Part shown: positions 8,102 through 55,227 of the stretch, piece by piece
How the letters are laid out: each line of letters opens with the position of its first letter
Numbering within the stretch: position 1 is the stretch's first letter
From: Candidatus Micrarchaeota archaeon
GTDB taxonomy: Archaea > Micrarchaeota > Micrarchaeia > Anstonellales > Bilamarchaeaceae
Assembly (NCBI GenBank): GCA_018304385.1
Contig: JAGVWJ010000008.1
Location: 32,308-96,307 of the forward strand
Length of the DNA: 64,000 bases
Direction of reading: 5' to 3'
Program-made: the position numbers and the translations under genes
The notes under the pieces: model-generated
Seen by the model: only the letters and a program-made list of their open reading frames with translations
Told to the model about the DNA's origin: nothing
Database searches by the model: none

Positions 8102-8974
8102 TTAATTTGGTAGGTGTTTTATTTGTCTAGATGCGCTGACTTCTCTTCTAATTACATCTAAATCTTCTCTTATACCTCTAACAGAATCAACAAGCGGATG
8201 GTCTATTGCTTGGCCGGCAGTGCTTAATGTAGCGTCAGTCTCATCAAACTCTGCAAGCACTGCTTCCCTTGGCAAGCTACGATATGCACCAGTTCGTCCG
8301 ACTTCTCTTATTTTCTTAACATGATTAAATGCCTTAAGCGCTTGTATTAAGCCAAGAACTTCTACATCGCTATATAATATAATCTGCCTAAATGAAGGAT
8401 GAACTGGTAATGCAAAACTAACTAAACTAAAAGTTTCTGGATCAGCTATGCATAATGCACTGCTCATTTCACCTGAACTTTCTCTAAGTAATGCAATGTT
8501 TGCTCGTAAACCTATCCCTTGCAATAACGCTGCTATCAGCACGTACAACTCTTCTCCTCGTGCTACAGCAAGTTCGTTTCTGCTTTCAATATTTGAATGC
8601 GCAACCAACTCGCCTGCGCTTAACGGCTGATCAGTAGCATGTATATGCTCTACATTATATACTATATCTGGCACACCTCTCTCTATGACTGGTTCAGGCT
8701 TTGGAAATGGTAGTTCCATATTTTGTGGAGTAAGAAAAAATACTGCGCCAGCTAACGCATCATTCATGCTTTTTCCAAAAAGAGGTCCAAGTTCTTCTAA
8801 AAGTCTAGCTAGCTTTGCATCTTTATCCCTAAATGGCCCTTCGCTAGGTGGCAATGACTTTGCACTTAATTTTTCAAAAACTCGCCTGACAACCGCTCGT
8901 TCAACTGGGGGATGAAATACTGGACTTTGTCTCCTAGGTCTTACACTTTTATTGAATGTTAATGCATGCGCCAT
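8102..8974 (-). CDS. Hypothetical protein, possible inactive transglutaminase-like fold (paralog of 7202..8020)
   Basis: EELYVLIAALLQGIGLRANIA aligns to the paralog and resembles the transglutaminase core helix without Cys. Confidence 0.6.
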   Translation of the reverse strand: MAHALTFNKSVRPRRQSPVFHPPVERAVVRRVFEKLSAKSLPPSEGPFRDKDAKLARLLEELGPLFGKSMNDALAGAVFFLTPQNMELPFPKPEPVIERGVPDIVYNVEHIHATDQPLSAGELVAHSNIESRNELAVARGEELYVLIAALLQGIGLRANIALLRESSGEMSSALCIADPETFSLVSFALPVHPSFRQIILYSDVEVLGLIQALKAFNHVKKIREVGRTGAYRSLPREAVLAEFDETDATLSTAGQAIDHPLVDSVRGIREDLDVIRREVSASRQIKHLPN

Positions 8975-27638: not shown

Positions 27639-27707
27639 CTAATCACCCTTAACATATTATAAAGAAATAACAATATAAATCATTCTGCAAGTATATTAAT
27701 AATTAAC

Positions 27708-28139
27708 GGGCCCGTAGCTCAGCCAGCCTTGAATTGCAAATTCAAGATTTGCAGGCAAGGCCTGCAATGGACAGATCGGCAGCCTTCTATGCCCAGCCTT
27801 TTTAGAATCTTGAGTATTTCTCATGGAAAAAAGGCTAGGCTTAACCCAAAAACTAGGATTACTTGTTTTGGGGCTCGACCTTTTCGACATTAAAATATAG
27901 AAGTGTTGAAAAGGGCGAAAGAGGATAGCTGTAGGACATGGGTTCAAAGCCATATCCCCTTTCTTAGGAAGAAAGGGGCTGAGTCATTCACCCCCAAAGA
28001 AGCGGTGATTGTCTGAGTTATACCTAAAATTGCCGACGCATGCTTTGCATGCGTCTAAAGCGCATTTATAAGAAAAATCTTAGGATAGCGCGGCTATTTC
28101 GCATAGGTATAACAATGGACGAAATTCCCATCGGGCCCG
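27708..28139 (+). tRNA. tRNA-Arg(UCU) with three introns (D-loop ~27726-27768; 37/38 27790-27926; 59/60 27949-28125)
   Basis: GGGCCCG/CGGGCCC acceptor; GCAGC-CT-TCT-A..A-GCTGT anticodon arm; ATGGG-TTCAAA|T-CCCAT T arm; CUUC/GAGG BHB central helix at 37/38; one D-stem mismatch. Confidence 0.85.
27949..28125 (+). ncRNA. 177-nt structured tRNA T-loop intron, copy 1
   Basis: Homologous to 55037..55213 with compensatory changes; relaxed BHB at 59/60. Confidence 0.8.
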
Positions 28140-28219
28140 TATTTTATTTTCCTATTTTAGCATGCTTTAAATTCCTTTTCTATTTAAAACATCTATTATA
28201 TAATCACTTATTCTAATTT

Positions 28220-54864: not shown

Positions 54865-54980
54865 AGAAAATATAGGACGGCCGACGCAGCAAAAGGCTTT
54901 ATTAGACTGCGTCACTATAGAAAATATCAGTAAAACGACGGCTTTATAATAAAGAGAAAATAGAAGAAAACATAGCTTGG
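54865..54980. repeat. Dispersed ~100-bp hairpin element, copy 3 (includes the tRNA-Ala promoter)
   Basis: Reverse complement aligns with 12573..12690 and 34918..35010; CTTTATAA at ~54942. Confidence 0.8.
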
Positions 54981-55227
54981 GCCTGTAGCTCAGTAGCAGA
55001 GCACCCGCCTTGCACGCGGGGGGCCGAGGGTGCGAGGCCATAGCCCCTTTCTTTAGAAAAGAAAGGGGCTGAGTCATTCACCCCCAAAGAAATGGGTGAA
55101 ACTTGGTTATACTGAACTGCCGATGAATGCGTAGCATTCATCCACAAGCGCATCTCTAAGAAATATCTTAGGATAGCGCGGCTGTTTCGCATAAGTATAA
55201 CAATGGACGAAAATCCCTCCGGGTCCA
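54979..55227 (+). tRNA. tRNA-Ala(UGC) with 177-nt intron at 59/60
   Basis: GGGCCTG/CGGGTCC acceptor with G3:U70 and A73; CCCGC-CT-TGC-AC-GCGGG; GAGGG-TGCGAG|T-CCCTC. Confidence 0.88.
55037..55213 (+). ncRNA. 177-nt structured tRNA T-loop intron, copy 2
   Basis: Homologous to 27949..28125. Confidence 0.8.

Follow-up and report, generated by a model that had tools for sequence, protein, structure and literature searches.

A tRNA-Arg(UCU) gene of a Micrarchaeota archaeon with three introns, two of them built from modules that recur in other tRNA genes

Introduction

Within a 64,000-nt stretch of a Candidatus Micrarchaeota contig (referred to here as the window), one locus begins with the seven nucleotides GGGCCCG and carries their complement and a discriminator G at its other end, 432 nt in all. 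This raises the question of whether the locus, most of it occupied by intervening sequence, is a tRNA gene from which a product could still be made, and where the intervening sequences came from. Up to three introns per tRNA gene, non-canonical intron sites such as 59/60, and relaxed BHB motifs are established in archaea, where such introns co-occur with broad-specificity endonucleases (PMC3239211, PMC4090602). The gain of archaeal tRNA introns is still an open matter: their spread in the Thermoproteales has been inferred without a mechanism, and a 2026 study of Asgard archaea found no route.

We examined the locus, its orthologs, and the other tRNA genes of its genome. On the evidence below, which is that of sequence comparison and predicted structure, we hold it likely (at a probability of about 0.85) that the locus is a functional tRNA-Arg(UCU) gene that would be transcribed, have its BHB introns cut out by an epsilon2-type EndA, and have its exons joined by RtcB.

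Host and sampling

Judged by its replicative polymerase, the host is a Micrarchaeota MAG, that is, a DPANN archaeon, and not a member of the Thermoproteales. Its PolD large subunit shares 58-72% identity with proteins from contigs labelled Candidatus Micrarchaeota, versus only 44-48% with those of other archaea, and the archaeal neighbors of the tRNA-Arg(UCU) gene include both the large and small PolD subunits as well as UPF0147. The Thermoproteales had been offered as the comparison in an earlier note made from the letters alone; up to three introns per gene are indeed known there, but these PolD identities place the host elsewhere. The assembly (G000) comprises 1.53 Mb in 65 contigs and is 89% complete. 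The locus is contained in groundwater and soil metagenome runs, none of them RNA; its sequence was recovered from four DNA runs, with three pieces at zero differences, along with paralogous copies of its intron cassettes, and these reads showed no joints.

Gene structure

The gene (27708-28139 of the window, forward strand) consists of four exons of 17, 22, 22, and 14 nt and three introns, the latter making up 357 of its 432 nt (82.6%). When 27725-27767, 27790-27926, and 27949-28125 were removed by coordinates and the four pieces were joined, ARAGORN reported a 75-nt tRNA-Arg(tct) with a complete cloverleaf. This bears out the earlier reading of the locus as a tRNA-Arg(UCU) gene with three introns occupying about 80% of its length, and the intron lengths proposed there (43, 137, and 177 nt) were exact. 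The joined exons form a 7-bp acceptor stem, a 4-bp D stem with three of four positions paired, and 5-bp anticodon and T stems; the anticodon and T loops are both 7 nt. They carry U8, A14, G18G19, U33, A37, G53, T54 T55 C56, A58, and C61. The sole flaw in the cloverleaf is a D-stem mismatch, C11:U24, which had been correctly noticed as a C:U pair. Exon G+C content is about 61%, versus 36.5% for the genome. The features of the locus are as follows.

27661-27680, forward strand: putative promoter, an A/T-rich, TATA-like block at -47 to -28 from the tRNA 5' end
27708-27724, forward strand: exon 1, tRNA positions 1-17 (acceptor 5' strand, U8 and A9, D-stem 5' strand, A14-C17); joined with exon 2 in the sister-species ortholog
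27725-27767, forward strand: intron 1, 43 nt, in the D-loop between C17 and U17a; absent in the sister-species ortholog
27768-27789, forward strand: exon 2, positions 17a-37 (G18G19, D-stem 3' strand with U24, anticodon-stem 5' strand, C32 U33 U34 C35 U36 A37); from the joined-exon cloverleaf
27790-27926, forward strand: intron 2, 137 nt, at the canonical 37/38 site; predicted near-canonical BHB geometry, fold z score -4.8
27927-27948, forward strand: exon 3, positions 38-59 (anticodon-stem 3' strand, variable loop AGGAC, T-stem 5' strand, T54-A59); 22/23 identical in the sister species
27949-28125, forward strand: intron 3, 177 nt, in the T-loop at 59/60; fold z score -6.5
28126-28139, forward strand: exon 4, positions 60-73 (U60, T-stem 3' strand, acceptor 3' strand, discriminator G; CCA not encoded); 14/14 identical in the sister species
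28142-28150, forward strand: T-run TTTTATTTT, a likely transcription terminator, read from the sequence

In its unspliced form the locus escapes standard annotation. ARAGORN reported no tRNA in it with the canonical-intron option on or off, and the Rfam covariance model RF00005 gave no match even at E values up to 5, as would be expected with 357 nt of inserts. A permissive Rfam scan of 27650-28200 returned three chance-level matches only, none of them a tRNA. The promoter role of the upstream block is suggested by its position, and the T-run TTTTATTTT probably acts as the terminator; orthologs likewise carry a T-run 3' of the gene. Three ORFs that overlap the locus (85, 54, and 58 aa) are probably spurious, since the intron sequence that they span is absent or different in the sister species.

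Conservation of the exons

A genome of a sister species in the same genus (G002) holds a syntenic gene in which 74 of 75 exon bases are identical. The same promoter-side 20-mer lies upstream, unchanged although the adjoining spacer differs, and the UPF0147 gene lies downstream. Mature positions 1-39 form a single unbroken block in G002, 100% identical and without intron 1. This block fixes the mature D-loop as AGCCUGGACA and thereby places intron 1 at 27725-27767; the intron therefore starts one base to the left of where it had been drawn, while its length stands. The C11:U24 mismatch is shared by G002 and is thus a conserved trait of the genus and not an assembly error or a mark of decay.

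While the exons are conserved between the two species, none of the introns is intact in both: intron 1 is absent from G002, intron 3 is replaced by an unrelated one of 69 nt, and intron 2 has its first two hairpins in common with G000 and a different third module. Arg genes of other genera that are syntenic or clearly related keep an intron at the same D-loop site, and all of them have a T-loop intron, the content of which varies; the Arg gene of G023 is without the intron at 37/38. Exons conserved in syntenic orthologs of several genera, with varying intron content, exclude a chance resemblance to a tRNA. One further gene, on G001:C5, has an intron homologous to intron 3 and the same acceptor and T stems; it was not counted as an ortholog, since its interior differs and synteny is lacking.

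AGA is the commonest Arg codon in the genome, accounting for 46% of Arg codons and 2.2 per 100 codons in long ORFs. The earlier note had suggested a check for another Arg(UCU) gene, and none was found in the genome with ARAGORN, Rfam, BLAST, or the cloverleaf finder described below: a BLAST search with the joined exons located exons 2 and 3 nowhere else in the genome, and the finder returned no other GC-rich UCU gene. A regular-expression scan for UCU anticodon arms gave 669 matches, mostly random, and was not relied on. The gene is apparently the sole Arg(UCU) gene of the host, as far as can be read from a genome that is 89% complete and with a finder that may miss very disrupted copies.

These data bear on whether the locus is a decaying pseudogene colonised by miniature repeat elements, with C11:U24 as a sign of the decay. 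Besides the D-stem mismatch, that explanation can draw on the weak BHB motifs of introns 1 and 3 and on intron modules that also occur outside tRNA genes, such as the solo copy at G000:C24:59650-59708. It leaves unexplained, however, why 74 of 75 exon bases, C11:U24 among them, match the sister species while the introns were lost, replaced, or reshuffled, and why the promoter block and the T-run are conserved. Nor does interruption set this gene apart, since nearly all tRNA genes of the genome are similar and interruption is the norm. With AGA at 46% of Arg codons and no second UCU gene found, we consider a pseudogene very improbable and a functional tRNA-Arg(UCU) gene the better reading.

Splice-junction geometry

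In a BHB motif, four exon nucleotides ending 2 nt before the 5' splice site pair with four intron nucleotides ending 2 nt before the 3' site; either site lies in a 3-nt bulge, and the cut follows the second bulge base. All three predicted junctions are compatible with this geometry, intron 2 in near-canonical and introns 1 and 3 in relaxed form. In intron 2 all four central-helix pairs form between C32-C35 and 27921-27924, one of them a G-U; the bulges read UA|U and AU|A, and the outer helix h is the 5-bp anticodon stem; a GAAA insert (27917-27920) lies between the intron-side helix and the central helix, opposite the 5' bulge. In intron 1 the central helix joins exon positions 12-15 to 27762-27765 (3/4 bp, with a U-C mismatch), the bulges are CC|A, a clean 5' bulge, and AA|U, the intron-side helix h' pairs 27726-27731 with 27756-27761 over 6 bp, and the exon-side helix h is reduced to about 1 bp. 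In intron 3, U54-C56 pair with 28121-28123 (3 bp), leaving A57 and C28120 unpaired; the 3' bulge AU|U adjoins the T stem, which serves as the 5-bp exon-side helix h, the 5' site lies within an internal loop, and after a 2-nt gap a 4-bp closing helix h' pairs 27950-27953 with 28115-28118.

All three introns thus have 3-nt 3' bulges, and the junctions take relaxed hBH/HBh' forms with predicted cleavage positions. The view that the intron-side helices are not canonical needs one qualification, namely that intron 2 has a canonical 4-bp central helix and 3' bulge. Among introns reconstructed genome-wide, 25 of 50 have a 4/4 central helix, versus 19% in a slid control in which the 3' segment was moved upstream; the comparison is only indicative, as the choice of boundaries was partly optimised and D-loop boundaries are noisy, with up to 43 alternatives per intron.

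Two exclusive folds of intron 1

Excised intron 1 folds into two hairpins, as had been proposed from the sequence, and covariation among seven genera agrees, with 90% of cells paired and four pairs compensated. The same seven genera also back the BHB pairing: 93% of the central helix is paired, and compensatory changes affect two of its four pairs and two of the six pairs of the intron helix. None of 500 shuffles reached the observed score of the BHB pairing, and slid controls scored far lower. The BHB fold is incompatible with the two-hairpin fold, and both are equally supported. An internal segment of the intron is a near-copy of exon positions 12-17, and because of this mimicry exon position 12 and an internal intron base both covary with the base closing the central helix. 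We present the two exclusive folds as an observation from sequence alignment and not as a proven switch, seven sequences giving little statistical power.

The two folds are one reason to consider nested or ordered splicing, the alternative named in the earlier note, in which inner cassettes would be removed first and expose the final BHB, with the same gene and the same enzymes. Introns 2 and 3 are modular, homologous copies have hairpins inserted inside them, and the 5' cassette of intron 3 always begins exactly at the 5' splice site, all of which such a scheme could accommodate. Each BHB can nevertheless form from outer-junction sequence alone, and no BHB flanking the inner cassettes was found by inspection. 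Since local sequence suffices for each BHB, ordered splicing is not needed, and we judge it unlikely; direct excision of each intron at its own BHB is preferred.

Splicing enzymes and a proposed path to the mature tRNA

A relaxed endonuclease had been held to be implied by these junctions, and the genome encodes a fitting candidate. A gene on contig C28 (G000:C28) specifies a 399-aa epsilon2-type EndA, residues 11-399 of which align with residues 4-387 of PDB 4FZ2 (E value of 1.2e-129). In this alignment the catalytic residues Y236, H251, and K282 (numbering from PMC3488258) are kept. The specificity loop reads GTYKAAHR here and GTYKVSEH in ARMAN-2, and lysine K161 is kept in both. The lysine of this ARMAN-2-specific loop confers cleavage of relaxed motifs (PMC3488258), and the epsilon2 EndA of ARMAN-2, an enzyme of broad specificity, cleaves a relaxed 59/60 intron in vitro (PMC3239211, PMC3488258). 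Intron 3 is of the same relaxed 59/60 type as that substrate (PMC3239211). The genome also has a gene for an RtcB ligase, located at the end of a contig.

A second EndA-like protein of 161 aa (PF01974) is encoded on G000:C53 (L107:1468-1950, minus strand), and its best PDB matches are alpha-type endonucleases at E values of about 1e-11. It could widen the substrate range, or it could be a relic.

Gene structure, exon conservation, BHB-compatible pairing with covariation, enzyme genes, and repeat families were observed, whereas transcription, cleavage, and ligation are inferred; we propose the following path. Transcription from the conserved A/T-rich promoter would yield a precursor of about 435 nt that ends at the T-run. 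Each intron-exon junction would fold into a BHB motif, and the epsilon2-type endonuclease would cut in the bulges. RtcB would then join the four exons into the 75-nt tRNA and would probably circularise the introns, and CCA would be added after exon joining.

tRNA genes of the genome

Standard tools recover few tRNA genes from this genome: ARAGORN called two without and four with its intron option, and Rfam returned four above the cut-off. We therefore used a heuristic finder that pairs acceptor stems and then seeks T, anticodon, and D arms, allowing one intron per loop; its output was filtered by exon G+C, and spliced products were validated by ARAGORN. The finder is blind to introns within stems and to two introns in one loop, so its yield is incomplete. 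It gave about 26 credible genes, every one of them interrupted by one to three introns. On the whole, about 26 of roughly 27 reconstructed tRNA genes are interrupted, with Ser(GCU) the single uninterrupted one, at about 1.9 introns per gene. Three introns each were seen in Arg(UCU), Asp(GUC), Leu(UAA), His(GUG), and probably Asn(GUU), and Arg(UCU) bears the largest intron load among the reconstructed genes. Taken at face value, the two to four tRNA calls of standard tools would falsely imply that the genome lacks a translation apparatus, and they would lower MAG quality scores in this group.

The window holds another interrupted tRNA gene, tRNA-Ala(UGC), at 54979-55227 (forward strand), whose single intron (55037-55213, 177 nt) lies in the T-loop. 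In the mature form the D-loop, AGUAGCA, is without G18G19, and the T-loop, UGCGAG+U, is without U55 C56; these non-canonical loops are the same in two copies in G002. The ARAGORN and Rfam calls at 54977-55073 are wrong, as intron sequence was taken for the 3' half of Ala(UGC).

Intron modules shared among tRNA genes

Shuffled sequences fold far less well than introns 2 and 3 (z scores of -4.8 and -6.5; none of 200 shuffles was as good), and each of the two introns has relatives in other tRNA genes. The body of intron 2 consists of three hairpins, and D-loop introns at 15/16 in Thr(GGU), Gly(GCC), Gly(UCC), and Met(CAU) contain its modules, so that the family occupies 37/38 in Arg(UCU) and 15/16 in four other genes, and intron 2 is 80-84% identical to the introns of Thr(GGU) and Gly(GCC). 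In the copies of this family, the 4 nt before the 3' bulge match the host exon (for example, GUCU/GGAC in Gly(UCC)), which is what the BHB requirement predicts.

Intron 3 is a composite of a 5' hairpin cassette (about 27949-28010) and a branched 3' domain of roughly 110 nt (about 28015-28116). A copy of the whole intron lies 27 kb downstream in the same window, in the tRNA-Ala(UGC) gene described above.

55037-55213, forward strand: paralog of intron 3 with 83% identity across 176 nt, occupying the same T-loop site in tRNA-Ala(UGC) (54979-55227)

The cassette takes up the first ~60 nt and consists of a long hairpin followed by a conserved UUCACCCCCAAAGAAA tail. Two T-loop introns, in Ser(UGA) and Leu(UAA), and one anticodon-loop intron, in Cys(GCA), open with sequence that matches it at 88-92% identity. 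Five genes carry the cassette at 59/60, Cys(GCA) carries it at 37/38, and within tRNA genes its start always coincides with the 5' splice site. It occurs in 12 of the 61 family genomes searched, representing 6 of 23 genera. In an alignment of 25 copies from these 12 genomes, G-C, C-G, A-U, and U-A pairs alternate in the basal 3-bp helix of the hairpin. A conserved CUGA in the cassette was considered as part of a K-turn or C/D motif; this reading was rejected, since the opposite strand is AUA and has no GA, leaving what looks like a near-continuous helix broken by a single A-A mismatch.

Pro(CGG) and Ala(UGC) also contain the 3' domain of intron 3, as do genes of G001, G002, and G017, and 6 of its 19 predicted pairs are compensated among nine copies. 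An order-wide BLAST search of 151 sampled genomes found the domain in only 3; either it is young, or its copies have diverged too far for BLAST to recover. In G002, 3'-domain copies at L105:622-786, L112:1565-1702, and L104:638-810 have extra hairpins of 50-70 nt in their loops. Such extra hairpins indicate that introns grow by nested insertion of hairpins.

The length and strong structure of introns 2 and 3 might also be read as those of degenerate group I or II self-splicing ribozymes, or of introns that carry a small RNA of known type, for example a C/D box guide. The Haloferax tRNA-Trp intron carries such a guide. Here, however, the CUGA motifs have no accompanying C box, and no Rfam family matched the region at the gathering score or even at E values up to 5, apart from the three chance-level matches. 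Lengths of 137 and 177 nt are also far below the core size of group I or II introns. Group I introns do exist in the rRNA genes of Micrarchaeota (PMC6125680), but all 39 archaeal group I introns in that study sit in rRNA genes. A ribozyme or small-RNA origin is thus hardly credible beside excision by the endonuclease.

The introns are assembled from hairpin modules common to many tRNA genes of the genome and family. Because the modules are shared among tRNA genes and positions and differ between sister species, the introns appear to behave as mobile or recombining families, although how they would move is inferred. More tentatively, they may be recently active mobile RNA or DNA elements of one Micrarchaeota family, whose hairpin cassettes and branched domain of roughly 110 nt insert at, or create, BHB-competent sites in tRNA genes; although we do not favor this fuller version, it is a serious possibility. 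Spliceability would then be preserved through host-specific adjustment of the 4 nt that precede the 3' bulge, and the internal exon mimic of intron 1 would maintain both of its folds. If so, the conserved domains might have functions of their own, for instance as circular intron RNAs that are stable, or as sites that the insertion machinery recognizes, and the family would offer a concrete system for how archaeal tRNA introns arise and spread.

Three stages can be seen together in the Arg(UCU) gene: intron 1, old and conserved in position, which the sister species has lost; intron 2, in which modules have been exchanged; and intron 3, a composite common to at least six other tRNA genes.

Relation to known systems

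ARMAN-2 (Candidatus Micrarchaeum acidiphilum) belongs to the same phylum; disruption affects 56% of its tRNA genes, and the in vitro assays used introns of 13 and 25 nt (Fujishima et al. 2011, PMC3239211; Hirata et al. 2012, PMC3488258). It has the same three-unit endonuclease with catalytic triad and loop lysine, non-canonical intron sites including 59/60, and relaxed BHB motifs. The present genome departs from it in that about 26 of 27 reconstructed genes are interrupted, in the size of the introns (43, 137, and 177 nt in this gene), and in that the introns are modular, strongly structured, and common to several genes. Were they cut as proposed, the substrate range of epsilon2 endonucleases would extend to introns ten times longer than those assayed.

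Thermoproteales tRNA introns are mostly short. Members of that order nonetheless resemble our host in having up to three introns per gene, a BHB requirement at the junctions, and similar introns across isoacceptors; the account of Fujishima 2010 given in PMC4090602 describes intron families common to different isoacceptors. They differ in phylum and in enzyme, having an (alpha-beta)2 endonuclease where the host has an epsilon2 form. The introns here are, moreover, composites of hairpin cassettes together with a branched domain of roughly 110 nt, and cassettes also occur outside tRNA genes.

Asgard archaea have heavily interrupted tRNA genes with no evidence of copying (bioRxiv 10.64898/2026.10.13.758758). 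There, too, most tRNA genes are interrupted, with about two intervening sequences per gene at BHB-competent sites, and D-arm introns escape standard annotators. Gene-to-gene copying is by contrast evident here, with modules 80-92% identical in non-orthologous tRNA genes.

Our literature search, itself incomplete, found no paper on such tRNA introns in Micrarchaeota beyond ARMAN-2. The gene is an extreme form of an arrangement already known in archaea, and what sets it apart is degree and anatomy, namely near-total interruption, structured introns of 137 and 177 nt, and a cassette architecture. The value of the locus lies less in the single gene than in the lineage-wide, modular, and apparently mobile intron system to which it belongs.

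Further occurrences of the modules

Intron modules were also noted at several sites elsewhere in the genome. The solo intron-2 module on contig C24 (G000:C24:59650-59708, minus strand) is partial and intergenic, with no flanking tRNA exons, and sits upstream of a dihydrolipoamide-dehydrogenase-like ORF. A further hairpin module, GUUUUGGG, followed by a CCUUUU...AAAAGG hairpin, is present at G000:C55 ~2560-2660 and at G000:C33 ~8270-8350 (minus strand). The same GUUUUGGG module forms anticodon-loop introns, for example in Gly(UCC), and lies directly upstream of the 5' ends of Ser(UGA) and Leu(UAA), as if it belonged to a processed leader. Just outside the window, at G000:C20:26250-26650 (minus strand), there is a multi-intron tRNA gene with a C1:G72 pair, possibly Tyr-like, which has both the leader-type hairpin module and the intron-3 cassette, the latter interrupted by an extra hairpin.
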